Shown: positions 5,260-47,698, numbered from the stretch's first letter. The stretch is DNA of 64,000 nt from Nitrospirota bacterium (GCA_963818475.1 CAWFSF010000006.1:544001-608000), one strand, 5' to 3'. Translations and numbers: made by a program. Notes: generated by a model not told the origin, from the sequence alone.

Positions 5260-5728
5260 TTTTTTCCCATATAGTATCTTGCAGCAGAGACGATATTTAC
5301 GCTGAACATCGGGAGCCGATTCGCGATGCCCTTGTGCGGGCCTGTTCTCAATGCGTGACCACCGTGCTATTCAGAAGCGTGACCGGAGTCATTCAACAAT
5401 GCTTCCACAGGTCTTATTTCGATGTTCGGGTCGCGGGTTTCGCCCGGTTATTGCCTCCCCCCTGGTGTACAGCAGCCAACCATAATCATTTTTTACTGAT
5501 GACCGGATTTCAGGAGCAGGTTCATATCATGCTTGCTCAGACCTCGGTCAGACCGATGCTGCAGGATAGTAGGCAAAACATATCCTGCATGCCAATCAGG
5601 GTTGGCTTTGTTGCAAACCAGGTTTATTACCGGACAGGCGCTTCCGGTGTTGCCGCAGGTGGCGGACTTTCTGATGATATAAAAGGGGCATTGCTACATC
5701 CCTTTTTTTGCCACCCCAAGAGGTATTC

Positions 5729-6682
5729 ATGAGTGAGAGGGAAAAGTCGGTCGATGACATGATGGGTGAGGAACCCTATAGCGAGGAAATTGAAGAAAAA
5801 AATGAGGTAGAGAAAAAAAACAGCAGTGAGGCTGAAGAGAGCGCTTCGGGACGAGGCCTCGATGCCATCAAGTTTTACCTCAAGGAAATACGCAAGACGC
5901 CGCTCCTTAACTTCGATCAAGAACAAGAACTGGCAAAACGTATCGCCCAGGGAGATCAGAGTGCCCGCGCCAAGATGATCGAGGCCAATCTGCGTCTCGT
6001 TGTTGCCATCGGCAAGAAGTACATCAACCGGGGCCTTCAGTTCTCCGATATCATTGAAGAAGGGAATCTGGGGCTCATTCGGGCAGTTGAGAAATTTCAA
6101 TACGAACGCGGTTTCAAATTCAGCACCTATGCCTCATGGTGGATCAAGCAGTCCATCGAGCGGGCCATCGTGAACCAGACGAGGACCATCCGCCTTCCGG
6201 TCCACATTGCCGAGATCGTTAACTCGTATATGCGCGCCACGCGACAGTTGACGCAGTCCCTGGGGCGTGATCCGCAGATCGAAGAGATCGCGAAAAAAAT
6301 GGGAAAAACCGTCGAGAAGGTGCGAAGCATCTCGCAGGTGGTGCGGGAGACCTACTCCCTGGACATGCTGATCGGCGATCAGGAGGAAGATACCCTCAAG
6401 GACATCCTGCAGGACACCAACGCTCTCTCTCCCGCCAGTCTTTCAGATGATAAACGCAGACGAGAGCATATCGACGAATGGCTTACCAAACTTACCGTAT
6501 CCGAACGGAAGGTCGTCGAGATGCGCTTCGGTCTCGTGGACGGGGAGCCACAGACCCTGGACAGCATCGGGAAGGAATTTCACATCACCCGGGAGCGGGT
6601 CCGTCAGATCGAGACCCAGGCGCTCAAAAAATTGCGAGACATCACGAGGCGGAAAAAGATCGATTTTGAGGAGATGGTGTAA
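5729..6682 (+). CDS. rpoS: Group 2 sigma-70 factor, RpoS-like
   Basis: Region 1.2 (YLKEI..TPLL), region 2 ([28 protein letters not shown]), RTIRLPVH, region 4 TRERVRQIE; no region 1.1. Confidence 0.75.
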
Positions 6683-6775
6683 TAAATTCTGAATACGGAA
6701 TTGAGAATGCAGAATTATAATAAGACAAAACTACGGATTTTTTACTCCGCATTCGCTATTTCTCATTACAATACC

Positions 6776-6852
6776 GCCCCTGTAGCTCAGGTGGATAGAG
6801 CAACGGTTTCCTAAACCGTGTGCCGGAAGTTCGAATCTTCCCAGGGGCACCA
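6776..6852 (+). tRNA. tRNA-Arg (CCT); integration target
   Basis: Cloverleaf with ACGGT-TTCCTAA-ACCGT anticodon arm, GTTCGAATC and CCA end. Confidence 0.97.
6808..6852 (+). repeat. attL core (45 bp)
   Basis: TTCCTAAACCGTGTGCCGGAAGTTCGAATCTTCCCAGGGGCACCA, identical to 20631-20675. Confidence 0.95.
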
Positions 6853-6860
6853 ATTTTAAG

Positions 6861-8072
6861 TTATTTCAATGACTTGGATTTAGGAAAAGACAGCAGAACT
6901 TCTCTACCTGGGCCTGTACCTGTGCCTTTGGCAAGGTTTGCAGTCTCTTCTTTATGCTTCTGTTCCAGCTTTTCCCTTAGCTTCCGGTGATACTGCGTCA
7001 CCTTATCCGCAGCCTCTTTTAAATCTTCCTCGCTCGTGATGTTGTACCGGTCGAAGACTGACCGCGTTTTGTGACCGCTTACCCGCATCGCGGTTGTTTC
7101 GGGGACCCCGCTACGTATAAGGTTCCTGACCCCGGTCCTGCGAAGATCATGAAAGAGCTTTTCGCTTAACCCTGCCTGCTTGCACGCTGTTGTCCAGGCC
7201 TTACGGCCGTCCTGCTTGATCTTGTGACCGTCGCGGAAAAAAACATATTGGCAGTCCGGAAATTGCTGCTCATGTAGCGCATACTGATTTGAAATCGCCT
7301 CATAGAGCTCACCCGTGAGGTAAATGATACGCGACTCATCGGTCTTCGTGTTGTCCGCGTCAAGGGTGATCTTGCCTTCCTCGAGGCTTACGTTTTGCCA
7401 GGTAATGGACATGAGTTCACCCCGACGAACGCCTGTGTGATACGCTGTTATCAAAACGGGCTTCAGGTATTCCGGCAGCCTCTCGAGGAGCTTCACATAG
7501 TCGCTGTACTCGAAGAAGCCCTGCCGGGCATTGTTCTCCTTTAGCATGGCGATATGAGGGGGATTGATGACCGTCGGCGGGCTTTGACGGGCGCCCAAGT
7601 TGAACATGCGCCTCAACGCGCTGAGCTCCCGATTTATTGTTCCATTTTCGGCGTCTTCTTTTTGCCGCTTCCGGATGTAGCTGGATATCTGTCCGGACTG
7701 GATATCCGCAACTCTTCTCCCGCCGAAATGCTTTCTCAGGTTGTCTATCAGCGACTTGAGCCGCGATACGGATTTTCTCCCGTTCATCTCGTAGTCATCG
7801 ATCATGTATTGCGCGATGTCGTCAAAGGTGGTTTTCTTGACTGCCAAGCCGGGGAAGGTATTTGTCGCTACCTGTCCTTCCCGGAGTGCCAGGACTTTCC
7901 GCGCATGATCGTAAGACGTTGACTCCGTGCTTTCACGGTACGGTTTCCCGTCCCTGTAATACTTTATCCAGTACGTTTTACCTTCTCGGGTGACGGTCTT
8001 GCCGTTCGCGGCCTTAATGGGCTTACCGTCCGCGTCCTTGCATGCATGTTTACGCTTGAAGATGCTTCCCAT
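6861..8072 (-). CDS. int: Phage-type tyrosine integrase
   Basis: N-terminal arm-binding region ([16 protein letters not shown]); [24 protein letters not shown] catalytic set. Confidence 0.95.
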
Positions 8073-8073
8073 T

Positions 8074-8292
8074 CTATTTGCTCACCTCCTTACCCCTTGG
8101 CGGCCGGCCCCGGAGAGGCTTCTCAGTCCTCTTTTTCGTGCATGCAAGGGCAAGATGCAGAAAAGAGGGGATCTCTCTTTCTCCGTTTTCCCATCGGCTG
8201 ATGGTGACAACAGAGACTCCCAGGACTTTGGCAATCATACTTTGGCTATAGTTGTTTTTCTTTCGCCAAGTCTTGAGATCTTCGGGACTCAT
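8074..8292 (-). CDS. XRE-family HTH regulator, probably from a leaderless mRNA
   Basis: [32 protein letters not shown]; minus-strand TTGACA (8328-8323)-N18-TATACT (8304-8299) puts +1 near the ATG at 8292. Confidence 0.85.
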
Positions 8293-8336
8293 GGGGTAAG
8301 TATAATTCAAGCATTAACCAAATGTCAATAGATATT

Positions 8337-8597
8337 TTAGAAATGATTTACGGTCTTACGGCTCTCGATCCAACTGTCCATATCGCCTCGGTCTAGATGG
8401 ATACGCCGGCCGTCTTTGATGAAGGGAATCTTCCCGGCCCATAACATTTCACGGACAGCACAGACGGTCCGTCCCAGGTAGTGCGCTGCTTCCGGGATGC
8501 TAAAAAGCCGCTTCGGCAAGAAATCGTCAGTCGCTGCGTTCGTTTTCGTTACATTATCTTTCATCGTATTATTTGAGTTATCGAGTGAACCTTGCAT
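8337..8597 (-). CDS. Excisionase-like HTH protein
   Basis: LFSIPEAAHYLG......REML..GKIP..KDGRRI; close to the integrase. Confidence 0.85.
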   Translation of the reverse strand: MQGSLDNSNNTMKDNVTKTNAATDDFLPKRLFSIPEAAHYLGRTVCAVREMLWAGKIPFIKDGRRIHLDRGDMDSWIESRKTVNHF

Positions 8598-8604
8598 AAT
8601 TCGG

Positions 8605-10188
8605 CTACGCCGTTGATATCGTCAGCTGCACGTTCCGGTCGCCTGCCCGGTTAATCGCCGGGATGACCTCGTTCTCCATGAGGCTGTCCCAGTATTCCTT
8701 GGTTCCGAGTCCGTTCTGAACATTGATCGTGATCTGCTGTCCGCCTGCGGCCTTGCTGTCCGCTCCGGCGATCGGGGGCAGGCCCGTTCCCGGGGACACG
8801 GGGTAGGTGCCCACGCCTCCGCCAGCGGAGATGCTGCCGCCCCCGCCGCCTCCTCCGTCCATGCTTTGGGACCGGATGGCCTTGACCTGGGCCATGCCCA
8901 TGGCGATAGCCGCTGCGGCCGCCAGGGCGCCGAGCACGGGGCCGACGTAGGGGATGCTGGCCATGGAATCGAAGGCCTTGATGGCGGCAGAATAGGTGCT
9001 GATCAACGCTTGGGCCGTGGCCGTCGCCTTGTAGATGCTGAAATACTTCCGGGCATGCGCCCCGCCCTGCTCGGACATCATCTTGGCGGCGGTGACGAAG
9101 TTTGTGGCTGCGGCATTGGCGGCCGCGATCCGCATCAGCTTGGTCTTTTCTTCCTGCTGCGCCATCATGGCCTGGCGTGCCATGTCGCGGTTGGCGTACT
9201 CCTGGCTGATGGCGTCCTGCGCGGCCTTGGCATCTCCCCAGGTGGCGGTCTCCTGCTGCAGCCGGGCCATCTTAGCCTCTGCCTGCAGGTCGAACTGGGC
9301 CAGCTCCAGGTTGTCCATCTCCACCTGGCTGGCGCCCTTGGCGGCGATCATGGTTCTGAAGGAGTTTACATATTCGGCGTCTCCTGCGAGGCGGCCGGCG
9401 GCGGTTAACTTAGAAGGGTTATAGTTTTCATAGGTAATCTTATTACTTAATCCCGCACGGTATGTTTGGTCGGCGGCTATCTGCTGCTTCATAATTGCTA
9501 TTGATGCAATGGATTCCCTGTTTTGTTCGCGGATCTGACTGGTACGTTCCTGCTCCATGGCAGCAGTGATGCCATATTCGGCGTCGTACCCTTTCAGTGC
9601 CTCCGTGCTGTACTTTACAACATGAGTTTTGGTTTTAAGTGCATCCTCTAAATCATTGAGCGCTTTCTTCTCGTCCCGGAGTTGTTTATCCATCTCCAAC
9701 TTCAGTAGCTCGCGCTTTGCGAGGAGAAGATTGTATGTGGCTTTCTTAGATTCCTCGGACGCCCCGGAATGGGCATAGAGTTCCTGAACCGCACCACGAA
9801 GCGTTGTTACATTTCGTTGCGTCTGTTCTACATCATGCTTCTTGGCCGCGGCTAAGTGGTTATAAGCCATGACCGACGCGCCAATGATAATCGAGACCGC
9901 TCCAAAGGCAACGGCAAAGCGGCCTGCGCCGGCGACGACGTCTTCAACAACATTGCCGAGCATGCGTGCGGCCTGGCCGGTGATGCCAATTTTCCCCCCG
10001 GCAGTTTCGGCGACCTCGCCCAAGCCCCAAAAGGCAAGTCTTCCAGCAGTACCCGCCTTTTCCGTACGCTTGCCGGTATCCTCGGCCTTATCTCCCATAT
10101 CGCCGATATCGGCCTTGGCCTTACGGAGGGTATCCTCTGCCAGGTTCAACGCCCGGATGACTACCTTAATGTCGCGTTCACTTCCCAT
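8605..10188 (-). CDS. Short phage tail tape-measure protein (527 aa)
   Basis: Ala/Gly-rich helical protein; N-terminal IKVVIRA.N.A..TL; hydrophobic segment; C-terminal ASIPYVGPVLGALAAAAAIAMGMAQVKAIR and ITINVQ; directly after a G/T chaperone pair. Confidence 0.8.
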   Translation of the reverse strand: MGSERDIKVVIRALNLAEDTLRKAKADIGDMGDKAEDTGKRTEKAGTAGRLAFWGLGEVAETAGGKIGITGQAARMLGNVVEDVVAGAGRFAVAFGAVSIIIGASVMAYNHLAAAKKHDVEQTQRNVTTLRGAVQELYAHSGASEESKKATYNLLLAKRELLKLEMDKQLRDEKKALNDLEDALKTKTHVVKYSTEALKGYDAEYGITAAMEQERTSQIREQNRESIASIAIMKQQIAADQTYRAGLSNKITYENYNPSKLTAAGRLAGDAEYVNSFRTMIAAKGASQVEMDNLELAQFDLQAEAKMARLQQETATWGDAKAAQDAISQEYANRDMARQAMMAQQEEKTKLMRIAAANAAATNFVTAAKMMSEQGGAHARKYFSIYKATATAQALISTYSAAIKAFDSMASIPYVGPVLGALAAAAAIAMGMAQVKAIRSQSMDGGGGGGGSISAGGGVGTYPVSPGTGLPPIAGADSKAAGGQQITINVQNGLGTKEYWDSLMENEVIPAINRAGDRNVQLTISTA

Positions 10189-10609
10189 TCGGCACCTTTG
10201 GCATGTTCTTTTTCCGCCACTCTGCTATCTCTCGCTTGTATAACTCGAAGGCTTCAACGAACCAGCAGGGCTGGTCTATCCACGCGCCGGGAAAGGGCAG
10301 TATCCCGGTCTCTTCCACCAGAAAGCAGAACCGCATGAGCTCCGCCGTCTCCTGCGTGATCCAGTTGACAGGGCATTCATAGAGGCGGATATCTCCCAGG
10401 ATGAAGACCTTGTCGAACCCCTTCATTTCCTCTGCGATTTCTTTTCTTTGCTCCTCGGACATACCCCTGAACACAAAGGCTGTTTCGTCCATCTCTCGCA
10501 GGTTGCCACAGTTACGCTTTTCCTGTTGCCGGTCGGAACAATCGTTACAGTCGAATGGGGGCTTCTGGTCTCCGCTGTTCTTCAGCTGGTAGCGGATGCC
10601 CCCGCAGAG
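10178..10609 (-). CDS. Tail assembly chaperone T segment (probable frameshift extension of G)
   Basis: The frame of ORF 10178..10492 stays open upstream to the GAAAAAC site (LCGGIRYQ...FDCNDC...NCGNLREMDET); overlaps the tape-measure start. Confidence 0.6.
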   Translation of the reverse strand, partial: LCGGIRYQLKNSGDQKPPFDCNDCSDRQQEKRNCGNLREMDETAFVFRGMSEEQRKEIAEEMKGFDKVFILGDIRLYECPVNWITQETAELMRFCFLVEETGILPFPGAWIDQPCWFVEAFELYKREIAEWRKKNMPKVPNGK

Positions 10610-10997
10610 TTTTTCTCTGGCCCTCGGTAAGCCTGGAGCTGCTTTCCATTGCCATGATGATCTCGGTGATCAGATCGTTGTCCGCGGCGTCATAGAGCTC
10701 CGCAGCGGTGGTGATGGACTTGCCGTCGACCGAGTAGTTTTCGACGCCGACGACGTTCTCGACGAACTGTTGGCGCTGGACCTCGCGCGCGACCCGGGTC
10801 TTGAGTTCGACGCGTTTGTTCACGTCCTTTATCCCCCGAATGTCCTCGCCTACCTTGCGTTCAATAATGTTCGCATAGTGCTGAACACGGGCGAAGCTTA
10901 CAAACTTTGTCTTGATGACACAGGGGTTGTCTGATCCCCGCTCGGATTCGGGGGTGTACTCGATGATAGTATCCTGTGAAAAAGAACTTATGGCCAT
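10545..10997 (-). CDS. Tail assembly chaperone G-like protein
   Basis: SD CAGGAGG; position upstream of the tape measure; ends ...LTEGQRK at an A-run slippery-like site. Confidence 0.6.
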   Translation of the reverse strand: MAISSFSQDTIIEYTPESERGSDNPCVIKTKFVSFARVQHYANIIERKVGEDIRGIKDVNKRVELKTRVAREVQRQQFVENVVGVENYSVDGKSITTAAELYDAADNDLITEIIMAMESSSRLTEGQRKTLRGHPLPAEEQRRPEAPIRL

Positions 10998-11158
10998 GGT
11001 GAATCCTCCTGTCTTGTTGAGTGCAATTTGACCTGTGCTTCTGAGACTGCCGAGGTCGAGTTCTTAAAATCGACGACCGCAAAAACGGGGGACCCCGCCT
11101 GCTTTTTTTTCAGTGTATCGATGGCCAGTTCATTTGCGCTGATGACGGCTGTTACCAT
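10988..11158 (-). CDS. Small hypothetical protein (56 aa, MVTAVISANELAIDTLKKKQ...)
   Basis: Strong SD GAGGAGG; fills the gap in the operon and overlaps the chaperone start; below the ORF-track cutoff. Confidence 0.45.
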   Translation of the reverse strand: MVTAVISANELAIDTLKKKQAGSPVFAVVDFKNSTSAVSEAQVKLHSTRQEDSPWP

Positions 11159-11217
11159 TAGACCTCCTCATAGTGGTTCATTCACCCAGTTGCCGAATCC
11201 CGTCCTGGGTATGACCT

Positions 11218-11745
11218 TTATTTGTTCTTGTTAATTTCCTTTGATATTTCATCTTCGATGACACGCTGAATCTGCGCGCCCTGGTTAAAATGGTTGAGCG
11301 CATCACGCAACGCGTCACGCGGGCCGAACTTGGCGGAGCTGCCGAGGCCGAGGAAGATGGCCCGGGCGTAGGATGCGGAGTTGAAGACCACGACCTCGTC
11401 GGGACCGGCATCGAAGCTGCCGGCGTCTCCGGATTTCGATTCTCCAGGATTGAGCCAGGCGAGACTCGATCGTAGATGACCCGTTACTCTCGGGACAGGA
11501 TATCCACCGGGCCGAGCCGTCAATAAATCAGATTGACCGCGCAATCTCGATTTTTTATGCTTGTCCGTATCCCGCAGACGCACCTGGGACTGAGCGCCGC
11601 CGGTTAACCATCGAAAGGCTTCTGCGTATATCCCGCCGCCGATGCGCGTGAGCCCCCTCCGAACCGCCCCTGGCAGTGCTTCGGATAGATGGTCTAAGTT
11701 AAAGATGACGTTTTTGTTTTCAACGGTGACTTTAACATCAATCAC
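11218..11745 (-). CDS. HK97 gp10-like tail-completion/neck protein
   Basis: P..TGHLRSS...VVVFNSASYA..I..G pattern; in the tail operon. Confidence 0.6.
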   Translation of the reverse strand: MIDVKVTVENKNVIFNLDHLSEALPGAVRRGLTRIGGGIYAEAFRWLTGGAQSQVRLRDTDKHKKSRLRGQSDLLTARPGGYPVPRVTGHLRSSLAWLNPGESKSGDAGSFDAGPDEVVVFNSASYARAIFLGLGSSAKFGPRDALRDALNHFNQGAQIQRVIEDEISKEINKNK

Positions 11746-12593
11746 TTGCGATCCCCCTGATCCCCCACAATACCGGTGCCGCTGGACTGCTGGCGGTCCT
11801 GGATGCTGCCGGCGGTCGCTTGCTCGGAATCACGCATGGCTTCAATCGAGAAGGGCGAGCCCTTCATGAAATCAACAAGAACAGGTTTTTCCCTCGGCAT
11901 GGGAGGCTGAAAAACAACTTCCCCGTCCCCGCCGGTGATGACTTCCGATCCGTGGGCCTCTTCCGTGGCGACGCCATGGTCGTAGCCGGTGCCGCTGGCG
12001 GTCGCTTGCTCGGAATCAGCCGGTTCAAGCAGGCCTTCGATCTCTTTTACGGCCTGCGATATTTCAGCCTTCGACGGCCCGCCGAACTCCAGCGTCCGTA
12101 AAAAGATATCCCAATCAAACGTACTTCCCACAGAATTTCCGTTCGCCGCGGAAAGATAAATATATGCCCGCCTGATGAGCGGCAGGTGTCTCCGAAGCGC
12201 GTCACGCTCCTCTTCGTACGCCGCCCGGTAGACGGCTGCACGGGCGGCCTCAACGGGATGGGCTCTGCTCGGATCATACAGCGATTCTAACTTTGTTATC
12301 TCCTTTCCGATCGCCGAAATCATCAATTCAGTTGTAGCCAAGGCCTGAGCAGCTGTCGTTCTCTGCGCATTTATCTGATCGAGCTCCTGAGGAGACACTT
12401 CGCCAAGGACAATTTTCACGCCTATTTCATCGGCTTTAGCTTCGACTGCAGAAAGAGCATTCCTTAGCAGGGGCACATTTTCCTGTAGCTCCGCCTGTTT
12501 GTCATGATACTTGACGACTTTTGCTGTCCTTGCTTTATCAGCTTCAAAAACTTTTTGAAACACTGTGATTGCACCCTGCCTCAACTTAGTCAT
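11742..12593 (-). CDS. Hypothetical coiled-coil protein
   Basis: SD AAGGAGG; long helical N-terminus; disordered tail with DSEQATA twice; ATGA overlap with the next gene. Confidence 0.7.
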   Translation of the reverse strand: MTKLRQGAITVFQKVFEADKARTAKVVKYHDKQAELQENVPLLRNALSAVEAKADEIGVKIVLGEVSPQELDQINAQRTTAAQALATTELMISAIGKEITKLESLYDPSRAHPVEAARAAVYRAAYEEERDALRRHLPLIRRAYIYLSAANGNSVGSTFDWDIFLRTLEFGGPSKAEISQAVKEIEGLLEPADSEQATASGTGYDHGVATEEAHGSEVITGGDGEVVFQPPMPREKPVLVDFMKGSPFSIEAMRDSEQATAGSIQDRQQSSGTGIVGDQGDRK

Positions 12594-12608
12594 ATTATTC
12601 CTCCTTCG

Positions 12609-12749
12609 TTATTTCTTCGGCGCCAGCAGGCTCGGCCTCTTATCGACTTCCTTTTTCTTTTCCCTCGGCGCCAGCAGGCTCGGCCTCTTATCGACTTCCT
12701 TTTTCTTTTCCCTCGGCGCCAGCAGGCTCGGCCTCTTATTTGTGCTCAT
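12609..12749 (-). CDS. 46-aa basic repeat peptide MSTNKRPSLLAPREKKKEVDKRPSLLAPREKKKEVDKRPSLLAPKK
   Basis: SD AAGGAGGGG, ATG at 12749, TAA at 12609; built from an in-frame 48-bp repeat. Confidence 0.6.
   Translation of the reverse strand: MSTNKRPSLLAPREKKKEVDKRPSLLAPREKKKEVDKRPSLLAPKK
12617..12739. repeat. 48-bp tandem repeat, about 2.6 copies
   Basis: Units start at 12617, 12665 and 12713 (TCGGCGCCAGCAGGCTCGGCCTCTTAT...). Confidence 0.95.
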
Positions 12750-12809
12750 AACGGGTTTCCCCTCCTTTTTATTGCTACCTGTATTTTACTGAGTGCCTAT
12801 CTCCTGTCG

Positions 12810-13097
12810 TCAAACTGCCTCATGGTTGAGTGTATCTTTCATTGCTCGACGCAATGTCATGACGCGGTCCTTCAACTCCTTCAAGCAGTGATTAAAATCG
12901 CCAATAGGAATCGGCACGTTTGCTCGATATGCCGCCATGGAAGCACGCACCTCCTGTGTATCAAAAAACATTATCCGGAACCGACCGCTATCGTTCGGGA
13001 TGATCCCGTATCGGCAATTTCGATTAATTGCAATGACAGCTGCCGCCTCAGAAAGGTCTTCGGTTTCCACGATTTTTGCTGCTGCTTCTTTTTTCAT
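12810..13097 (-). CDS. Small phage protein (DUF5659-like)
   Basis: T.DL..AA.....G.F...F....V...Y......F...LKELK pattern recalled from prophage DUF5659 proteins; first gene of the tail operon. Confidence 0.45.
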   Translation of the reverse strand: MKKEAAAKIVETEDLSEAAAVIAINRNCRYGIIPNDSGRFRIMFFDTQEVRASMAAYRANVPIPIGDFNHCLKELKDRVMTLRRAMKDTLNHEAV

Positions 13098-13594
13098 TTT
13101 CTACTACCCCCAAAAGTAACGGGCTCCGCCAGGACCAGGCAACCGGACATGGGATGTACGGAAGTTTCCCGACTTCCGTAACCAGGAGGTACCAGCTTCC
13201 TGGTCCTGGCGAAGCCCGCTATTCATTGAATCACGTCGAGACCGGAGCGGAACTTGAGAAGTCGGGAGGGAAAAGCTCCCGCTTGAAGGAGAAGAACCGC
13301 CCCGGTCTCGACGTGATTCAATGCAGCACATGCGTTTCAAAAAACAAAAAACCGGAGTCCGTAACAGTTCCGCTTGCGCGGTTGCCATGGGGGCTCCGGT
13401 TCCAAAACCTACGCAGAAGACTGCGTCAGGCAATATTAAATATGATGTTGTTTTGTCGTTTCGCATAATTCGCTCGGTAAACTAATCTGCCGAAAAATTA
13501 GCACACGACTTGGGAATTGTATATCGGAAGTTGAGGTATCAGTTTGAAACTGATACCAAGGCATGGCAGGGGAACAGGTGATGAAGCAGAAAGA

Positions 13595-14653
13595 TCAGCT
13601 TTTTCGTTCACGCTCTAATAGTTTTCTGATTGACTCGATCTGCTCGGGTTTATTGCCTGATAATAAAAAATCGGTCAGTAATTCCTGCTCGATAAATTTC
13701 CGCGGATCCCCTAGAAGAATGTGTAGAGTATCTTTCTTTATGAGCGGTATGAGGCGATGATCTATCGGATGGATTTTCTTTTCCCAATTCGGCGTATTTA
13801 TCGTTATGGTTTCTTTGGGGAAGGCTTCTCTGTAGTTACGATGCATGCTCCAAGCAATCGGCAGGAGAAAATGTACAAGGCCGGAGATATATAGTGTTTC
13901 AGGAATTTCACTTTGCTTGACAGCTGCACGGTTTTTATAAACAGAATCAACGAATCGGGCTGCGTCTTTCTTTTCTTTTAATGTTCCATGAAACATTTGA
14001 ATATATCTTTTTTCAAAGTGCTTTCTTAATAATATTATGCCAGGTTTTCGCGACTGAAAAAACGTCTGCATACTTCGAAGAGCTTTTGTGACTATGAGGT
14101 CCATCCTGTCGGAATGACGTTTTAAAAAAGCTGGTGATGCACGTTTGCCGAGGTAATCAAGATCGTCTTGTAAAGATAGTGCTTCAAAATCAGAAAAGCT
14201 CGCACCGTCAATATATTTCCCATTATTGATTTCCTCCTGGACGCGGTCCAGAACTTGTTTAAAACTTAACTGTTCATCATACTTTGTTTTTCCATCGACT
14301 ATGAATATAAAGAACTTATCTTCGTTTCGATGTTTGGTTCTTTTTTCCCTAAACCCATATCGCTTAAATTCAAAACAGTGACTTTTCCCGGTCAATGGGT
14401 ATGCTATAAAAACGCCACCGTGGGGAAAATGTTTTTTATCGGAACTGTCTTTGAAAAAGGGATATCTTATATTAAAGCTCTTGTCAAAAAGATCCCTTGT
14501 ACTTCTGCTTTCTTCTTCTAGCTGGGCTATCCAGTCGTATCCAAGGCAATCAGGCGGGATTTCATTGCGGGCACGCTCGGCGAGTATAAGATCCTCTTCA
14601 AGGGTATCTGGATTGCGTCCATATCGATCCTCTACAGCCTTATCCTCTCTCAT
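13595..14653 (-). CDS. Hypothetical AT-rich cargo protein (352 aa)
   Basis: Long ORF, visibly more AT-rich than its flanks; no family recognised. Confidence 0.7.
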   Translation of the reverse strand: MREDKAVEDRYGRNPDTLEEDLILAERARNEIPPDCLGYDWIAQLEEESRSTRDLFDKSFNIRYPFFKDSSDKKHFPHGGVFIAYPLTGKSHCFEFKRYGFREKRTKHRNEDKFFIFIVDGKTKYDEQLSFKQVLDRVQEEINNGKYIDGASFSDFEALSLQDDLDYLGKRASPAFLKRHSDRMDLIVTKALRSMQTFFQSRKPGIILLRKHFEKRYIQMFHGTLKEKKDAARFVDSVYKNRAAVKQSEIPETLYISGLVHFLLPIAWSMHRNYREAFPKETITINTPNWEKKIHPIDHRLIPLIKKDTLHILLGDPRKFIEQELLTDFLLSGNKPEQIESIRKLLERERKS

Positions 14654-14774
14654 CTCATCCGCCCTCCGGGTGCGGCCTCCGAAAGATGGAACAGGGGGAA
14701 GCCGATCGGAGTATCGGTTTTCGCCCGGGGTTCGACGCCCGGGCTATCCCCCTAGTGCAACGCTTAACACCTTT

Positions 14775-15014
14775 TCATCTGGACGTTTTGCTGCGTCTTG
14801 ATCCGGATCCCGGGGCCGGGATCGGCCAGCCTTCTTCCTTGAATACTGCGAGCACGGCGGCAAGTGCCTTTTTGCCGTCTTCAAGGGCTTCTTCCTCGGT
14901 TTCGCCGTCGCCTATACACACGTCGAAATCAGGATAACTGATCAGGAAGCCGCCGCCTTCTTCCTGGGTAAGCGGACGGATCTCGTAAGGATATTCGGGG
15001 ATATCTATCGGCAT
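14775..15014 (-). CDS. HicB-like antitoxin domain protein
   Basis: YPY.I..L..EEGGGFLISYPDF..C..DGET.EEAL.....AL. Confidence 0.85.
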   Translation of the reverse strand: MPIDIPEYPYEIRPLTQEEGGGFLISYPDFDVCIGDGETEEEALEDGKKALAAVLAVFKEEGWPIPAPGSGSRRSKTSR

Positions 15015-15274
15015 TATCGATACACGTCCTTCCTATGGCCGATCTTCTCGACATAGACGGTCTCATCCCGGTCATCGATCCGGTATATGACCCGGTATGG
15101 CCGGACGTACATCTTCCACAGGCCTTTGTATTTACCCTTGAGCGGCTCACCGCTCTTGCGCGGGGCGCCGGCGAGCGTGGTCATGACGGCGTCCAGGATG
15201 CGTTTTCGCTGAACGGCGTCGATGCGCTTCAGGTCCTTTTCAATTCGCTCATGGTAGACGATGTTATACGCCAA
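15014..15274 (-). CDS. relE: RelE/ParE-family toxin
   Basis: KDLKRID...GEPLKG...GLWK..V.PYRVIY.I....V.V.KIGHRKDVYR. Confidence 0.9.
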   Translation of the reverse strand: MAYNIVYHERIEKDLKRIDAVQRKRILDAVMTTLAGAPRKSGEPLKGKYKGLWKMYVRPYRVIYRIDDRDETVYVEKIGHRKDVYR

Positions 15275-15473
15275 GACGCTTCCTCATATCCTTGTCCGTG
15301 ACATACTTCGCGTTGGGGTTTCGGCTGCGCTCGAGGGCTTCCTCGTAATCCGCGATCTCCTCGAGGTGCAGTTCCAGTGCCTCGCGCGCGAAGTAGCTTT
15401 TTGACCGCCGGTACTTCTTTGCCAGCTCCGCCAGTCGCTTGTCCAGTTTTTCGTCTATTCTCACGCCCAACAT
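15264..15473 (-). CDS. Ribbon-helix-helix antitoxin (RelB-like)
   Basis: LGVRIDEKLDKRLAELAKKYRRSKSYFAREAL...acidic tail; overlaps relE. Confidence 0.85.
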   Translation of the reverse strand: MLGVRIDEKLDKRLAELAKKYRRSKSYFAREALELHLEEIADYEEALERSRNPNAKYVTDKDMRKRLGV

Positions 15474-15530
15474 GTAAAACCTCCATTTCGCGGTCCCGCG
15501 TCGATCGTTGAGACCGTCTTTTGTTTAGTC

Positions 15531-15559
15531 ATGTTAAGCTATGTTTAACATATTGTCAA
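15531..15559 (-). promoter_or_regulatory. TA operon promoter with overlapping operator
   Basis: Minus-strand TTGACA-N17-TAACAT overlapped by the inverted repeat ATGTTAA-N7-TTAACAT (15531-15551). Confidence 0.65.
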
Positions 15560-15646
15560 GCCGTTTTAAGATGGTCGTGAGCGTGACAGGCGTTACGCAG
15601 CGTGACCACCTGTAACGCGGTTCATTCGGCTTCATCCTGTGACGCT

Positions 15647-16297
15647 TCACCGGCCAAAGATAGCCGGTGTCCTATGTAGGCGTATATCATGATAATGCAC
15701 GTTATCAAAAGTTAAGTCCGCCCGAAAGCTCATATCTAAAGGTTCCGCATCGTCCGATCGTTTGAACACGATAGCGACTTGGAATGGACTGCCCGTGACT
15801 TTCAGCAATCGTGACATTTTCCCAATTTCTATAGCATCGGGCTGAATACCAAGATGGAAGAACTTTGGATGAGACGAATAAACGGGCTCGCCGGCGTCAA
15901 TACGACAATGATCTCGGATATGAGGTGCATTCGCCCATCTCGATGAATCCATAACAACATGGCCGCGCGTAATGACGAGTGCTTTCCCGTCCCCCAGATG
16001 ACATCTTAATATCCCTAAAAAACGTAAATTATTACCTGACCAGAAATGCCGGACCATGTTTTTTTCATCCAGCCCAACGGCAGATCCAGTGCACATGATT
16101 TCATTGGAATCATCACAAGAAAAAATTTCAAACCTGTGTTTAGGCCCTATCTCGTTCACGCTGCCGATACGCCAGCCGTGAAATTCCTTTATCTGTGTAA
16201 CCGATTCTAGGAGATTCAGCTCAGGTAGTAACTCGATATCTCCAATTTTTATAAGATAAGGATCAATAAAATCGTCCATGTCTTTCCCCCGTACCAA
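15647..16297 (-). CDS. Hypothetical AT-rich cargo protein
   Basis: 216-aa ORF, AT-richer than flanks; no family recognised. Confidence 0.6.
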   Translation of the reverse strand: MVRGKDMDDFIDPYLIKIGDIELLPELNLLESVTQIKEFHGWRIGSVNEIGPKHRFEIFSCDDSNEIMCTGSAVGLDEKNMVRHFWSGNNLRFLGILRCHLGDGKALVITRGHVVMDSSRWANAPHIRDHCRIDAGEPVYSSHPKFFHLGIQPDAIEIGKMSRLLKVTGSPFQVAIVFKRSDDAEPLDMSFRADLTFDNVHYHDIRLHRTPAIFGR

Positions 16298-16354
16298 TTC
16301 TGATGTCGAAAACTTGGCTACGTGACGCGCGTGACTTGACCGTGACGTAGTTAT

Positions 16355-16807
16355 TCATCCCTGCTCTATGATATTATTGATTTGGGTTACGCTCAACTTA
16401 AAGCGGAGTGCGATTTCTTTATGATTGGTCCCGTTGTAAATAGCACAGATCTTCAAGTTTCTTTCCATGCGATAGAGCGTTTCAATATCCGGGAACCAGA
16501 TCCGGCGGCCTCCGAGCTCGCAGACGATCTTGTGCATGATCGCGCGGCCGGAAGCCTGGCCTAACTCCTGGCAAGTGGTCATCCAGAGTCTCCTGAAGCA
16601 TGCGCTGCAGCCGTGCAGCGGATCGTTGCTGAGCGAGGCATGCTGATTGAGCCCCGGGTTGTTTGTTGGAACGCGGATACGCTGCCCTCCGGCATGGGAC
16701 ACAAGGTGCTCGATAATCTTTTTGCCGGCGGCTTCGCCATAATCTTTGACAAAACCCTGAAACAGCCGCGTGACAATCACGCGGTTTTGCCGGCGAGTAT
16801 CATTCAT
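16355..16807 (-). CDS. Mor/C-family transcription activator with duplicated N-terminal domain
   Basis: Two ...GG.RI..P segments and a C-terminal RNLKI...YNG.N..EIA.RF.LS...I..II HTH; ATG 16807 overlaps the upstream recombinase stop. Confidence 0.75.
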   Translation of the reverse strand: MNDTRRQNRVIVTRLFQGFVKDYGEAAGKKIIEHLVSHAGGQRIRVPTNNPGLNQHASLSNDPLHGCSACFRRLWMTTCQELGQASGRAIMHKIVCELGGRRIWFPDIETLYRMERNLKICAIYNGTNHKEIALRFKLSVTQINNIIEQG

Positions 16808-17771
16808 CAGCCACGCATTTTCGTGACATCGACATTTTATTAAAATCCACCCAGTAATCAGAAAGCGATTCATTTTTCTGGATGCTTGTATCGCGTTGAG
16901 TGAAGTATCGAGCAACGGAGTCGAGACGAACAAATCCCATCCGCTTCATGATCTCCTGCACGTCGAAACCGTGGATACACTGCAGGTCCAGGACATGCCT
17001 TGCCCTGAGCATGTGAGTCGAGGCCATAGGTTTCTGCATCCCGGCACGGCCGGCTAGGTTGATCACGAGATTGTAACAGGCTTTTGCAGTCAGGCGCTGG
17101 TTGCCCCTGGGCTGTCCGTTTTTCTTGTAGCTCACCAGGAGCGGGTCGCCTTTCTTGGCGCCCTGGACCAGGCGAGCGCTCAGAAGCGATCGTACGATCG
17201 TACTTGGTTCCTCCCACAGGGCTACTGTACGGTTACCGCCCGTATTGTTTTTGACGATATTCAGGCTGACGCAGCGCCCATCGTCCGCTATTTGCCCCGT
17301 GTTGAGATCCGTTATCTCTGCAACCCGTAGGCCGGCGAAGACGCCCATGACCAGAAAGACGACGTCGCGGAGGCCCTTCTCCGTTGAGCTGTCGATCGCG
17401 CTGAACAGCTGCAGGACCTCGGCCCGCGTGAAGCTGTACAAGGGGTCGTTGCCGGAGTCCGGGCGGTCGATACCCGCGGTTGGGTCGAGCGCGATGATCC
17501 TGGAATGGATCAGGTACCTGAAAAAGGCCTGAAGCGCGCAAAGTTTAAAGTTGCGCCGCTGATTGCCATTTCCAAGGGCCTTGCAGGCCTGCAGGTAGAG
17601 TCTTACGTCTCGCTCCGTTGTTTCCAATACAGGGCCGTCCTGCGAAGCCTGGGCACGCCAATTGGAGAACTGGCGGATGCAGGTCAGATACCGTTTGCAG
17701 GACGATGGTTTCAATCCCCGAAATTCCATCAGCCATCGTTCGAAGAGATTCAAATCAAGATTTATATTCAT
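16800..17771 (-). CDS. XerC/D-like tyrosine recombinase (possibly degenerate)
   Basis: SAM-like N-domain; GLRVAEI, THMLR, then MGF in place of LGH, ARY. Confidence 0.8.
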   Translation of the reverse strand: MNINLDLNLFERWLMEFRGLKPSSCKRYLTCIRQFSNWRAQASQDGPVLETTERDVRLYLQACKALGNGNQRRNFKLCALQAFFRYLIHSRIIALDPTAGIDRPDSGNDPLYSFTRAEVLQLFSAIDSSTEKGLRDVVFLVMGVFAGLRVAEITDLNTGQIADDGRCVSLNIVKNNTGGNRTVALWEEPSTIVRSLLSARLVQGAKKGDPLLVSYKKNGQPRGNQRLTAKACYNLVINLAGRAGMQKPMASTHMLRARHVLDLQCIHGFDVQEIMKRMGFVRLDSVARYFTQRDTSIQKNESLSDYWVDFNKMSMSRKCVADE

Positions 17772-18257
17772 GCGCTCCCCCGTGCCCCCACTTTTTCACG
17801 ATTCACAATTCAAAATCTATCAAACGAAGATCACTTTCAGCCAATAACAAAAAGGCTTTTAGACTACACCCCAATTTATAAGCAGCAATGAGGGTCGTAA
17901 TCGCGACTGAGACTGATATTTTCCAAGGGGGGTAGGCTACCCCATGTGCTGATCACTGTCTGGATTTAATTTGTACTTCACCTTTCAATAGGTTCATCAC
18001 GTTTCTACCATTGATTCTATTAATGTTTATCACTGTATTGCTTACGGCAATGGCGCTTATTGTAGAAAAGTGCCATTGAGTTCGGCTGTAATCCGGCTGT
18101 ATTACCCGTCACGAAACGACCCATACGCCACAGACCGACCACACAGACAAAACGGAGAATAGACTTTAACCAACAACCACGGACTTAGAATCAACATATC
18201 AACCTCAAAACTACTTAGAATAAAATCACCCTGTAGAATCCTTTTTTCATTCGATGA

Positions 18258-19055
18258 TCAGGCAGTCGTGGCCTTGCCCTCGAAGCTGGCAATCTCAAGA
18301 ACTGTGTACCGAGTGACGAACTCTTTACGCAGCTGGTCTCTATCTTGTCCATAAAGCTCCCTGATCCGGTCTGAACCACCCAGGTCAAAGAATATCTTTT
18401 GAGACAGAGCGTCTCTGACAATTAACTTCTGACCAGGCGGCACATTCAAATCCTCCTCGAATTGCTTCCATGCATTATCAGCTTTTTCGTAGGAAATAAG
18501 CTTCCGTGGCGAATGATTCACCTCCCTCCCTTTAGAAGGTAAAGGCTGGGGTAAAGGCTGGGGCAAAGGCTGGGGCAAAGGCTGGGGAGTATTAGAATTA
18601 GTATTATGATCGGATACAGGTGGTATACTACCTGTATCCTTATTATCTGGTTGTTCTTTTGGGGTTTTCTTGCGTTTCTCGGTTTTCCAACGTTTTGCGA
18701 TGTTCTCCCGCGCCACCTTAGACCGCACGTCAGAATAGAAAACCCATCCCTGGTGTTTGCTCCAATTGTGAATCAAAGTTCGCCCTTTTTTGTCCTTATT
18801 GAGGAAGTTCATACCAGGTGTATACAGGTCGTTTACAAAGGCCATACAATCTGAATCACGGCCTGTGGCAATTTTCCATTCAGTCTCATCGAAGTCGGTC
18901 AGGTTTCCTTTCCGTGCATGCTCTGCCGCATACGCCCAGAGACGGAGAATGGAAAAGGCGCCATCGGTCCCGTACTTTGCAATGATCCTTCTCGTTTTAA
19001 TGTGGTCGAAAAACGACAACTTCACGCGGATATCATCTGGCATAGAGAAAACCAC
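18258..19055 (-). CDS. Phage replication initiator / replisome-organizer-like protein
   Basis: N-terminal F.DH.KT..I...G....LRLW.YA...I HNW..HQ; low-complexity linker with (PQPL)4. Confidence 0.6.
   Translation of the reverse strand: MVFSMPDDIRVKLSFFDHIKTRRIIAKYGTDGAFSILRLWAYAAEHARKGNLTDFDETEWKIATGRDSDCMAFVNDLYTPGMNFLNKDKKGRTLIHNWSKHQGWVFYSDVRSKVARENIAKRWKTEKRKKTPKEQPDNKDTGSIPPVSDHNTNSNTPQPLPQPLPQPLPQPLPSKGREVNHSPRKLISYEKADNAWKQFEEDLNVPPGQKLIVRDALSQKIFFDLGGSDRIRELYGQDRDQLRKEFVTRYTVLEIASFEGKATTA
18538..18587. repeat. 12-bp tandem repeat x4 (GGYAAAGGCTGG) encoding PQPL
   Basis: Directly visible in the sequence. Confidence 0.9.
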
Positions 19056-19124
19056 TCCTTAAAGAGTACTGCTCCAGGTGGTTGCCCTTCGTGGCATGGT
19101 CACCACCTGGAGCAGTCAAATTAC

Positions 19125-19751
19125 TCATAGGGCTTTCAACAACCCCTCGGCTCGAGCCGCTCCGATCGTGAGCACATGTACTGCTTGCTCCATCTCCTGG
19201 TCCGTGGCCTCCGTATAGATCCCCGTTGAGGCCAGTGAGGAGTGACCGAGAAGCTTCTGGATCGTGGTGATAGGTACGCCCCGCTCCTGCATCCTTTTGG
19301 CGAAGGTGTGCCGTAGTGAGTGCGTTGATTTATTCGCGACAATCTTTCCCTTACGCGTGGTTGTGATGCCGGCCTTGATCATCCATTTCTCGACCAGGTG
19401 CTGGAGCGATCGTTTCTCTATCCGCCCACCCAGGCGAGAAACGAACAGCGGGGCCAAATCCTCGATGCTCTCTTGCAGAGTATTCATCTTGTATGCAATC
19501 CACTTATGCAAGATGTCCTGGATCCGGATGTTTAGATTGATGTCCCTTCCTCGGCCGTTCTTCATGTCTTCCTGTCGCACATGGAGCTGTTTCTTATTAC
19601 GAACATCGGACACAAGGACGGCAACCAGCTCGCTGGCCCGCAGCCCCGTATTCAGGAGCAGCTCGATAATCACATGGTCACGTTCGGCACCCTTTGTTTC
19701 CCGGACTGTTTTTAGGAGCTGCTTTTCCTCAGATGGAGTAAGATATTTCAT
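19125..19751 (-). CDS. Small catalytic-domain-only tyrosine recombinase (208 aa)
   Basis: KYLT..E, TGLRASEL, K, HSLRHTFA, LGH....T.IY all intact; no N-terminal binding domain. Confidence 0.9.
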   Translation of the reverse strand: MKYLTPSEEKQLLKTVRETKGAERDHVIIELLLNTGLRASELVAVLVSDVRNKKQLHVRQEDMKNGRGRDINLNIRIQDILHKWIAYKMNTLQESIEDLAPLFVSRLGGRIEKRSLQHLVEKWMIKAGITTTRKGKIVANKSTHSLRHTFAKRMQERGVPITTIQKLLGHSSLASTGIYTEATDQEMEQAVHVLTIGAARAEGLLKAL

Positions 19752-19839
19752 GACTATTTCTCCTTACGCGGAGGGCCATACACTTTGCCCTCGATGTCGA
19801 TCCGGATACTGACCAAGAAATCCTGTTTGGCCTGCTGCT

Positions 19840-20166
19840 CTATGCGCCAGTTCTTAGCTTTTGATTATGCTTCCACTTTTCATCGATGATTGTTTTGACC
19901 ATCTTCTGGAGATCATCGAATCTTTCTTCAAAAAGATACATCGTTGATCCGACGTGTTCTCTATAGAACGATTCATCGTACAGGTCCGCCTCGAGGGCCG
20001 CATGAACAACGCGGATGAGCGAACGAATTTCAGTTAACCGAAGCGGAATTTCGTTCAGCAAGTCAGGGTCTGTGTGGTCTTTTCTTACCCCGCGGAGCAG
20101 CACCTCAACTGCATTTTCATTCTTCTTCTGATTTCCAACCCGTTTTACCATCTGACGTGCATTCAT
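19840..20166 (-). CDS. Hypothetical protein
   Basis: SD GAGGAG, 108 aa, same strand as the rest of the element. Confidence 0.55.
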   Translation of the reverse strand: MNARQMVKRVGNQKKNENAVEVLLRGVRKDHTDPDLLNEIPLRLTEIRSLIRVVHAALEADLYDESFYREHVGSTMYLFEERFDDLQKMVKTIIDEKWKHNQKLRTGA

Positions 20167-20240
20167 GTGTGTTCTCCTCTCTCTCTGGCCGTTCCGGCCA
20201 TCTCCTTAAGGTTGGCCCCCGGTCTCCCGGGGGCCCGGTA

Positions 20241-20459
20241 TCATGCAGCCTGTTCCTTACTTTGTCGCCAAATCAAATGGCCCGCGTCGACGCCGGCGAA
20301 GAAAGCGTCCGCTGCAGCGGTCCCGACGCGGTATGGTAGAACAATCTTCTTGCTCTCCAGCCGAAATGCGAGCGCCGCGCGTACCCCGCCCCAATACTCG
20401 GCGCTTCTCGGTGTTCGTGGAACGTTGAAATTTTTATTGAACAGCTCTTCGACGGTCAT
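20241..20459 (-). CDS. Small hypothetical phage protein
   Basis: SD GGAGGG before MTVEELF...; LPYRVGTAAADAFFAGVDAG; followed by a GGCCCCCGG/CCGGGGGCC hairpin near 20214-20235. Confidence 0.55.
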   Translation of the reverse strand: MTVEELFNKNFNVPRTPRSAEYWGGVRAALAFRLESKKIVLPYRVGTAAADAFFAGVDAGHLIWRQSKEQAA

Positions 20460-20630
20460 GGCAAATCCCTCCATTCTTACCTGTACCCTTAACTGTGCCT
20501 GCGAGGCTTAATCTCTGTCTGATTCGTGCTGACTCCATCTGACATAGAGAATACCAATACCCTTTAGAAAACAGCTTTTACCGCGTAATATCAGCGGCTT
20601 TGAATATGTGTAAAAAGTACCTTTAAAGTA

Positions 20631-20675
20631 TTCCTAAACCGTGTGCCGGAAGTTCGAATCTTCCCAGGGGCACCA
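20631..20675 (+). repeat. attR core (3' half of tRNA-Arg)
   Basis: Identical to 6808-6852; followed by the displaced tRNA terminator GGCCGGTC-gtttt-GACCGGTC-T-run near 20691-20718. Confidence 0.95.
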
Positions 20676-47531: not shown

Positions 47532-47698
47532 CGAGAGAAGTAATGAGGAACCATAACACTAACTGAGTGACGTTGTAGATTCTATATTGATTCAGACCCA
47601 TAGGGGAAAATTGTAGTTGAAGTTGCGTTGCGGATTTCTATGCGAGCTCGATTCCTTGGTTGGTTGAAAGGGTCAAGGCAATGATAGACAAAGGACCT

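Follow-up and report, generated by a model that had tools for sequence, protein, structure and literature searches.

A small tRNA-integrated element of an uncultured Nitrospirota bacterium carries a tape measure gene without recognised head genes and may be a phage satellite

Why should an integrated element that has no recognisable gene for a phage head carry a gene for a phage tape measure protein (TMP)? The question is raised by a 13,868-bp element in an uncultured Nitrospirota bacterium, known from a metagenome-assembled genome (MAG) that is 91% complete (G000). The element lies within a 64,000-nucleotide stretch of DNA, here called the window (G000:C6:544001-608000), and the coordinates below are those of the window unless another sequence is named. 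A first-pass annotation had read the element as a satellite that hijacks the tails of a helper phage.

The element, 13,868 bp in length, is integrative and intact. As annotated earlier, it is bounded by exact direct repeats of 45 nt (100% identity), attL at 6808-6852 and attR at 20631-20675. The attL copy constitutes the 3' end of a plus-strand tRNA-Arg(CCT) gene (6776-6852; ARAGORN; Rfam tRNA, 66.8 bits), the target of integration. All genes between the two att copies are on the minus strand. The sequence is sequentially composed, in the direction of transcription from attR, of open reading frames (ORFs) for 77 and 108 aa, a 208-aa recombinase, a Rep-like protein, a 323-aa recombinase, a Mor-family activator, a 216-aa ORF, a ribbon-helix-helix (RHH) protein, a ParE/RelE toxin, a HicB-like protein, a 352-aa protein and the late cluster. 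The XRE regulator and the integrase follow the late cluster and have a strong sigma-70-like promoter of their own. The coding fraction is 0.85, and every ORF is open.

The late cluster encodes, in order, proteins of 95 aa, 46 aa (a repeat peptide), 283 aa (coiled-coil), 175 aa (gp10-like), 56 aa, 150 aa, 104 aa and 527 aa (TMP), followed by the excisionase Xis. Most of the late ORFs have AGGAGG-type ribosome-binding sites, and their stops and starts overlap, in agreement with the compact, coupled operon described before. The xis start lies 7 nt beyond the TMP stop, which makes xis the last gene of the late operon. For no ORF of the element do Pfam and PHROGs contain a matching capsid, portal, terminase, tube, sheath, baseplate or lysis family at E<=0.01, and Pfam at E<=10 reveals none of them among the ten ORFs without an assignment, which are all of 352 aa or less. 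Judged by these scans, the element lacks the genes for an autonomous virion, and the earlier statement that head genes are missing holds. The late operon is predicted to encode virion-interior tail parts only, namely the TMP, the gp10-like protein and small unassigned proteins headed by the coiled-coil protein.

The TMP gene (8605-10188, minus strand) matches four PHROG families of TMPs, including phrog_9483 (7.5e-17) and phrog_3336 (1.3e-9); no Pfam TMP domain is matched. Residues 377-443 match 76 records of the phage collection, and all annotated matches listed are TMP genes. In cultured phages the similarity is confined to a motif of 55-67 aa. Full-length homologues are found in four other genomes (G010, G011, G021 and G064) and in L062, a phage contig from a metagenome. 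These TMP ORFs of 452-527 aa are intact, share 27-42% identity and have N- and C-terminal motifs in common. In L062, the TMP (491 aa; 30-42% identity to those of the elements) has minor tail proteins on either side (phrog_290, 4e-16; phrog_1924, 1e-50) and two large proteins downstream. A 110-aa gene upstream of it shares 47% identity with the ORF found just upstream of the G064 TMP. The PHROG matches, the motif shared with annotated phage TMPs and the tail module of L062 place the protein in the TMP family, and the original call of a 527-aa tape measure is confirmed.

The TMP is single-copy in G000. A homologue is present in 3 of 60 relatives, and profile A1 matches 8 of 64 genomes of the family, G000 counted. 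Among the eight A1 loci that could be classified, five are small tRNA-integrated elements in which the TMP lies near the integrase gene and no other tail gene is recognised (G000, G010, G011, G021 and G064); the other three (G087, G031 and L062) are tail modules. The homologues in G031 and G087 are distant and belong to long gene rows resembling tail modules. A scan of IMG/VR with the TMP profile yielded 61 pattern matches, none of which was confirmed.

The relatives of the element reside in Nitrospirota or Nitrospiraceae MAGs and measure 10-16 kb. The G010 element spans 15,170 bp between 50-nt repeats at a tRNA-Gly(GCC) gene. It carries, in the same order as the G000 element, a TMP (527 aa), homologues of the 283-aa and 352-aa proteins, a recombinase-Mor-recombinase group, Rep, the 208-aa recombinase and the 108-aa ORF. 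These homologues are 23-52% identical to their G000 counterparts. The 352-aa homologue is apparently interrupted, a single high-scoring segment pair extending across two ORFs. The G088 element, which was reached through the gp10-like gene and not the TMP, is about 16 kb long and has a 29-nt att copy 16 kb away from its tRNA-Gly(CCC) gene. It possesses the same backbone plus the gp10-like gene. The shared backbone of G000, G010 and G088, in three genera, at three tRNA genes and in elements of 13.9-16 kb, shows 38-52% protein identity. The same backbone at a similar size is thus found at tRNA genes of related genomes, G010 with 15.2 kb and G088 with about 16 kb, a comparison that the first-pass annotation had proposed.

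The elements of G021 and G064 are a second type within the TMP-bearing group. The former is 11.3 kb long (L010, 5851-17156), lies at a tRNA-SeC gene and contains an integrase, a lambda-O-like Rep, a DnaC-like loader, a TerS-like protein and a TMP. The latter is 10.2 kb long, lies at tRNA-Gly-CCC and contains an integrase, a lambda-O-like Rep gene with 21-bp iterons, a TerS-like protein and a TMP. The TerS-like proteins of the two are 73% identical, with a dN/dS of 0.17. At a tRNA-Leu gene, G011 has an integrase (48% identity), XRE (65-68%), Xis (61%), a TerS-like protein and a TMP with an in-frame TAG near its start, after which the contig ends. TerS-like N-terminal domains (phrog_57, 6e-11 to 7e-13) are present in G021, G064 and G011 only, adjoining the TMP.

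These comparisons indicate that the element is a member of a small, conserved, phage-derived family in Nitrospirota and not a one-off deletion remnant. By gene content, the family joins a short late operon to a backbone for regulation and replication (integrase, XRE, Xis, Rep-like protein, and Mor with its recombinases). The sister species G003 provides a view of the integration site. Both flanks are 88-91% identical to those in G000, and 2.4 kb of unrelated genes replaces the element. The flank comparison reveals no prophage at the tRNA-Arg site of G003, so deletion of a resident prophage finds no support; for this sister species, the full-length prophage from which simple deletion could have produced the element is absent. 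With the insert of G003 (L053, 14737-17123), in which a HigB/HigA-like pair, a response regulator and fragments of genes are present, the site has the look of a hot spot for integration.

The gene for the HK97-gp10-like tail-completion protein (175 aa; 11218-11745, minus strand) owes its assignment to its homologues. Taken alone, the ORF scores 15.6 bits for PF04883 (E=0.032), below the threshold of 21.4. There are 37 homologues at 39-70% identity, one of which carries a precomputed PF04883 annotation. PF04883 is matched by 9 of 32 aligned homologues (E<=0.1, best 1.6e-6) and is the only family matched by more than one of them. The earlier gp10-like call thus draws its support from the family, the ORF itself staying sub-threshold. 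The protein has no PDB relative by sequence, and one weak match in cultured phages.

Five loci with gp10-like homologues were inspected (L031, L033, L037, L041 and L043), from Deferribacteres, Geobacter, Methylococcaceae and Thermodesulfovibrionales. All five are full morphogenesis modules. The gp10-like gene follows terminase-, portal- and capsid-sized genes, judged by size and order, and TMPs of 593-868 aa are encoded 4-5 kb downstream. Because the homologues of both the TMP and the gp10-like protein are located in phage modules, these parts of the element are phage-derived. In L041, a phage-like locus of Geobacteraceae, a tyrosine recombinase and Mor (40-1097) lie directly upstream of the row of head genes. 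The recombinase-Mor module may be a phage late-control unit, and its position ahead of head genes ties the regulator of the element to phage late control.

Of the readings considered, we favour a helper-dependent phage satellite that has a TMP of its own, like the PLEs of Vibrio (elements that resemble phage-inducible chromosomal islands) and mycobacterial EPIPs, although taken by itself it is an evenly balanced call. The proposal of a tail-hijacking satellite agrees with the satellite size, the att boundaries, the tail-interior genes without head genes and the conserved relatives; its helper was not found. Such a satellite would express XRE and integrase constitutively from their own promoter. 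Upon helper infection, a Mor-type late activator, of the element or of the helper, would turn on the late operon. Since xis is the last gene there, Xis would be made along with the late proteins and excision would be coupled to the late signal. The Rep-like protein would amplify the circle, and helper capsids would package it. By analogy with PLEs, helper tube and tip proteins may assemble around the element TMP, and the gp10-like protein may enter the tails.

Several observations weigh against a satellite of this kind. G000 contains no match to the Pfam families HK97 capsid, PhageMin_Tail, TerL_ATPase, Terminase_6N or Phage_portal and no paralogue of any element-specific gene. The structural ORFs of the phage-like loci have no G000 homologue, apart from the gp10-like protein and a chromosomal gene with a cell-wall-hydrolase domain. 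The helper prophage with homologous chaperone and gp10 genes that had been envisaged is not found elsewhere in G000, nor is a small terminase, pac or cos recognised in this genome. One of the five other host genomes has a TerL match (G064), borderline at 22 bits. At the TMP position, G088 encodes a 650-aa protein, which by comparison of profiles is no TMP; hence not every member of the family has one. The count of TMP genes beside integrase genes is biased, since the TMP was the query through which most relatives came to light. The 150-, 104-, 56-, 95-, 283-, 352- and 216-aa ORFs are without an assignment.

The TMP tree also belongs on this side of the balance. The phage L062 has a branch of 0.28, and the element copies have branches of 0.63-2.45 (1.99 for G000) in a clade that is not resolved. 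The long branches may reflect relaxed constraint or adaptation. The dN/dS of the TMP between G021 and G064 is unusable because synonymous sites are saturated, and it cannot separate the two. Relaxed selection on the tail genes, raised by the first-pass annotation as a point against its own proposal, may thus be present, the element branches being 2-9 times as long as that of the phage. At about 0.15 nm of tail length per TMP residue, 527 aa would correspond to about 79 nm. The idea that this TMP is shorter than that of the helper has no evidence in its favour; the sole genuine phage with the TMP family has one of 491 aa.

The missing helper could mean that the element is never packaged. It would then be a defence island that acts by interference only, its TMP and gp10-like protein being poison subunits that block phage tail assembly, like Tai, Tab and Rta. 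Mobile elements that block tail assembly are established, as far as the available text of the sources goes (PMC11364771; PLE11 Rta in bioRxiv 10.1101/2025.01.29.635557). Neither a packaging gene nor a helper is recognised in G000, TerL matches are missing in four of the five other hosts, the element TMP branches are long, and toxin-antitoxin modules are aboard, all of which would suit such an island. However, none of ten element proteins matches a PADLOC defence model, and TerS-like genes adjoin the TMP in G021, G064 and G011. The location of xis in the late operon and the Rep-like gene point to induced excision and replication, as in transducing satellites. Both roles also coexist in PLEs in the text available for bioRxiv 10.1101/2025.01.29.635557. 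We consider a purely interfering island unlikely. The long G000 TMP branch could also be a mark of decay, in which several deletions in a Mor-regulated temperate siphophage would have left non-functional tail genes. The gp10-like and TMP homologues do occur in full phage modules, the nearest phage relatives of the two genes are in different phage groups, and both the apparently interrupted 352-aa homologue of G010 and the in-frame TAG in the G011 TMP resemble decay.

A cryptic prophage is nevertheless quite improbable. Three syntenic elements of 13.9-16 kb occupy three tRNA genes in three genera at 38-52% identity, and independent decay would not be expected to leave them a common backbone. 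In G000, moreover, the att copies are exact, the ORFs open, the coding fraction 0.85, and the ribosome-binding sites and coupled starts retained; TMP ORFs of 1.5 kb are still open at about 30% identity; and a prophage is missing from this site in the sister species. An origin unrelated to virions would suit the three tyrosine recombinases and the Rep-like gene, the hydrophobic segments of the TMP and a cargo that is mostly without known function. The TMP-like product would in this case be a membrane and coiled-coil protein of another mobile element, serving DNA transfer or membrane anchoring. This explanation has very little chance of being right, given that the protein matches four PHROG TMP families, its conserved motif is that of annotated phage TMPs, a full-length homologue of 30-42% identity resides inside a phage tail module, and a gp10-like tail-completion gene shares the operon. 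Relaxase and conjugation families are also absent from the Pfam and PHROG scans.

Returning to the helper-dependent satellite, a more specific version may be considered, to which we attach a tentative and rather low confidence. In this version, the elements would be Mor-controlled satellites of non-resident, possibly virulent, Nitrospirota phages, and the late module would combine the coiled-coil protein with an exchangeable cassette of proteins for the tail lumen and for injection. The cassette would consist of the TMP and the gp10-like protein in G000, the TMP alone in G010, and the gp10-like protein plus the 650-aa protein in G088. By swapping the protein that is ejected first, the element might escape exclusion or defence directed at the TMP, while the capsids, tubes and tips of the helper would be used. 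The late activator of the helper would trigger excision, xis ending the late operon, and the coiled-coil protein could be an undescribed scaffold that redirects capsids or tails.

The coiled-coil protein (283 aa; 11742-12593, minus strand) is the first large product of the late cluster, and tblastn finds matches to it in L011 and L030. Its N-terminal portion of about 190 aa is kept in G010 and G088. Five homologues of 168-203 aa are present among 1.84 billion representatives, and the PDB contains weak matches of coiled-coil type only; sequence searches of the PDB with profiles A1-A4 gave nothing meaningful. The family profile matches 5 of 401 genomes of the phylum, G000 counted, and the G074 match has the coordinates of G088. 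A pattern scan of the genomes for the family gave no matches. A weak similarity in G021 (hhalign probability 72%, E=3.4e-5, 18% identity) is not relied on, and the protein is absent from G064 (hhalign probability 12%). In a further element of about 8.2 kb, in G361 (L069, approximately 5477-13745), the coiled-coil protein has a weak homologue (E=3e-6). This element lies at tRNA-Pro(TGG), with an integrase, ORFs of 530 and 308 aa and a partial tRNA copy at 13695-13745.

Upstream of the coiled-coil gene, the late operon begins with a 95-aa ORF (12810-13097, minus strand; no family match). It is followed by a 46-aa ORF (12609-12749, minus strand) with an AGGAGG ribosome-binding site 8 nt upstream. 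The 46-aa product is a basic peptide of three 16-aa repeats (KRPSLLAPREKKKEVD); its coding sequence is a 48-nt tandem repeat (12612-12755) directly before the coiled-coil gene. Downstream of the gp10-like gene are a 56-aa ORF (10988-11158, minus strand) with a GAGGAGG ribosome-binding site and no family match, a 150-aa ORF (10545-10997, minus strand) and a 104-aa ORF (10178-10492, minus strand). The last overlaps the TMP start by 11 nt, has a weak ribosome-binding site and is without a match in Pfam, PHROGs or PADLOC.

The 150-aa and 104-aa ORFs had been taken for G/T tail-assembly chaperones. This assignment is not upheld. Neither ORF matches a family, including Pfam at E<=10, and neither resembles any of 18 ORFs adjoining TMP genes in relatives and phages. 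Among 5.8 billion proteins, a single non-self homologue matches the 150-aa ORF, which can be called a chaperone by position and size only; in these two respects, the pair does look like those encoded upstream of the TMP in full phages. A programmed frameshift between the two was rejected, as the 104-aa frame is +1 relative to the 150-aa ORF and not -1, and the 122-nt overlap contains no XXXYYYZ heptamer; the sole candidate for slippage is an A5 run at about 10606-10610.

The integration genes, like the Mor-like, Rep-like and toxin-antitoxin genes, are each matched by Pfam, PHROGs or both, as had been annotated. The tyrosine integrase (403 aa; 6861-8072, minus strand; PF00589, 3e-22; phrog_1, 6.6e-57) shares 48% identity with its counterpart in the G011 element. 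The XRE-type helix-turn-helix (HTH) regulator (78 aa; 8074-8310, minus strand; PF01381 (HTH_3), 2.8e-12) is preceded by a sigma-70-like promoter at 8328-8299 (TTGACA-18-TATACT, 11 of 12 matches). Xis is an 86-aa excisionase-type HTH_17 protein (8337-8597, minus strand; PF12728, 2.1e-9; phrog_66, 1.6e-6).

Toward attR, the Mor-family transcription activator (16355-16933, minus strand; PF08765, 2.8e-16; phrog_532, 5e-15) is 48-52% identical in G010 and G088; its translation probably begins downstream of the TTG. The gene is paired with that of a 323-aa tyrosine recombinase (16800-17771, minus strand; PF00589, 8.8e-15), and in G010 and G088 recombinases lie on both sides of Mor. The 265-aa Rep-like replication initiator (18258-19055, minus strand) matches phrog_9474 only (7.1e-9) and has a G010 counterpart at 39% identity. 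A short tyrosine recombinase (208 aa; 19125-19751, minus strand; PF00589, 3.7e-35) is 45% identical in G010 and 38% in G088. The 108-aa and 77-aa ORFs (19840-20474, minus strand) complete this end; the 108-aa one is kept in G010 and G088 at 42-49% identity.

Between Mor and the late operon, all on the minus strand, are a 216-aa ORF (15647-16297; no match in Pfam, PHROG or PADLOC), an RHH antitoxin (15264-15473; PF01402, 1.5e-7), a ParE/RelE toxin (15014-15274; PF05016, 2.5e-13) and a HicB-like ORF (14775-15014). The RHH/ParE/HicB-like group (14775-15473) also has a match to phrog_497 (4e-13) and is preceded by a promoter-like site at 15559-15531. The 352-aa protein (13595-14653, minus strand) is kept in the G010 and G088 elements at 33-38% identity and has no match in Pfam, PHROG, PADLOC or the PDB.

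The first-pass annotation had overlooked the two additional tyrosine recombinases, the 46-aa repeat-peptide gene and two non-coding features. The first of the latter is an int-alpA RNA motif (RF02996; 14676-14754, minus strand; 43.2 bits, above the gathering score of 35.8; E=2.9e-6). The motif also exceeds the gathering score in the G064 element (L027, 14512-14579, minus strand), and in both elements it lies upstream of a gene without an assigned function. The second is a block of about 360 nt with long, near-perfect hairpins between the 352-aa gene and the late operon (13104-13466, minus strand; arms 13224-13255/13292-13323 and 13117-13146/13192-13221). The predicted RNA fold of 13090-13600 has an energy of -233.7 kcal/mol (z = -14.7). 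The block is single in the genome and not a repeat, lacks a counterpart in relatives and matches no Rfam family. It might act as a regulatory RNA, as several terminators, or as a site of packaging or replication.

Some further observations concern the surroundings. A CRISPR array outside the window (G000:C6:1998506-2001425) has 52 repeats of 29 nt; none of 51 spacers matches the window or any fetched locus over >18 nt. Within the window, a chromosomal gene for a 614-aa protein (32349-34193, plus strand) contains an endolysin-type domain (residues 368-485; phrog_435, 1.3e-38) that resembles the product of the gene adjoining the gp10-like gene in L043. Three very large ORFs stand in a row on the plus strand, at 36126-43280, 43249-46542 and 47660-62311 (2384, 1097 and 4883 aa). 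In the G021 element, a 173-aa ORF has a DNA-ligase-like match (phrog_114, 7e-11).

Before 2025, satellites were thought to target only the heads and packaging of their helpers, and PLEs and EPIPs changed this view through TMPs of their own. Should the G000 element prove to be such a satellite, the own-TMP strategy would extend to an uncultured and environmentally important phylum, and tape-measure takeover would be recurrent among satellites and not a peculiarity of Vibrio. Mor-type regulation and a swappable tail-interior cassette would be new relative to the known cases. The members of the family, compact and comparable at 10-16 kb, are also suited to defining a minimal gene set of tail takeover. 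No paper on phage satellites in Nitrospirota was found in a search of the available papers; supplementary tables of the cited papers may list more TMP-bearing satellites.

To our knowledge, phage-inducible chromosomal islands (PICIs) and P4 act on heads or packaging and carry no TMP. The element shares with them the size range of 10-16 kb, att integration with int and xis and a replication initiator of its own, and in relatives a TerS-like gene. The int-alpA RNA motif is, by its Rfam name, common to integrase- and AlpA-bearing elements. Mor can be likened to P4 Delta as an element-borne late activator, a functional resemblance. The element departs from the Gram-negative PICI core of int-alpA-pri/rep: an integrase is present, the small HTH protein is of HTH_17 type and there is no primase. 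Pfam and PHROGs do not reveal the small-terminase or capsid-size genes of PICIs and SaPIs in G000. The element likewise has no match to the Phage_AlpA, primase, Sid, Psu or Cpm families in these scans, nor the psu/delta/sid/alpha-primase set of P4. The major capsid protein that cf-PICIs and EPIPs possess is also not recognised, a gp10-like connector or tail-completion gene being the only one of this kind.

Putative E. coli satellites are described, in the available text of the preprint by Barth et al. (PMC10055350), as tRNA islands with capsid, decoration, TMP and baseplate-hub genes from which most tail genes are missing. By this description, the G000 element is similar in its tRNA integration, its TMP and the absence of most tail genes. 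The E. coli satellites differ in that they encode capsid and decoration proteins and, as the same text has it, are tied to other phage types.

The EPIPs of Mycolicibacterium aichiense carry a TMP and head-tail joining proteins and have no tail tube or lysis genes, according to the available part of the report (PMC12822802). On this evidence, they resemble the G000 element in being small satellites with a TMP and without tail tube or lysis genes. However, the serine integrase, small terminase, scaffold and major capsid protein that the report gives for EPIPs are not recognised in the G000 element. The relatives G021, G064 and G011 do have a TerS-like gene, as EPIPs have a small terminase.

The TMP, a tail-assembly chaperone and a baseplate hub of PLEs are incorporated in chimeric tails, as stated in the accessible text of the PLE study (bioRxiv 10.1101/2025.01.29.635557). 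Compared by gene content with that text, the G000 element is likewise a satellite-sized integrated element with its own TMP and without tube, sheath or fibre genes, and its helper, like that of PLEs, need not reside in the host. It differs from PLEs in belonging to another phylum, in using a tyrosine integrase at a tRNA gene, and in possessing Mor, extra tyrosine recombinases and a gp10-like gene. A baseplate hub and a capsid-remodelling scaffold are not recognised in it, and its putative chaperone owes that name to position and size. Satellites that carry a TMP have been published before (PMC12822802, PMC10055350, bioRxiv 10.1101/2025.01.29.635557), and among the known systems the element would, by analogy, be most like PLEs and EPIPs in its working.

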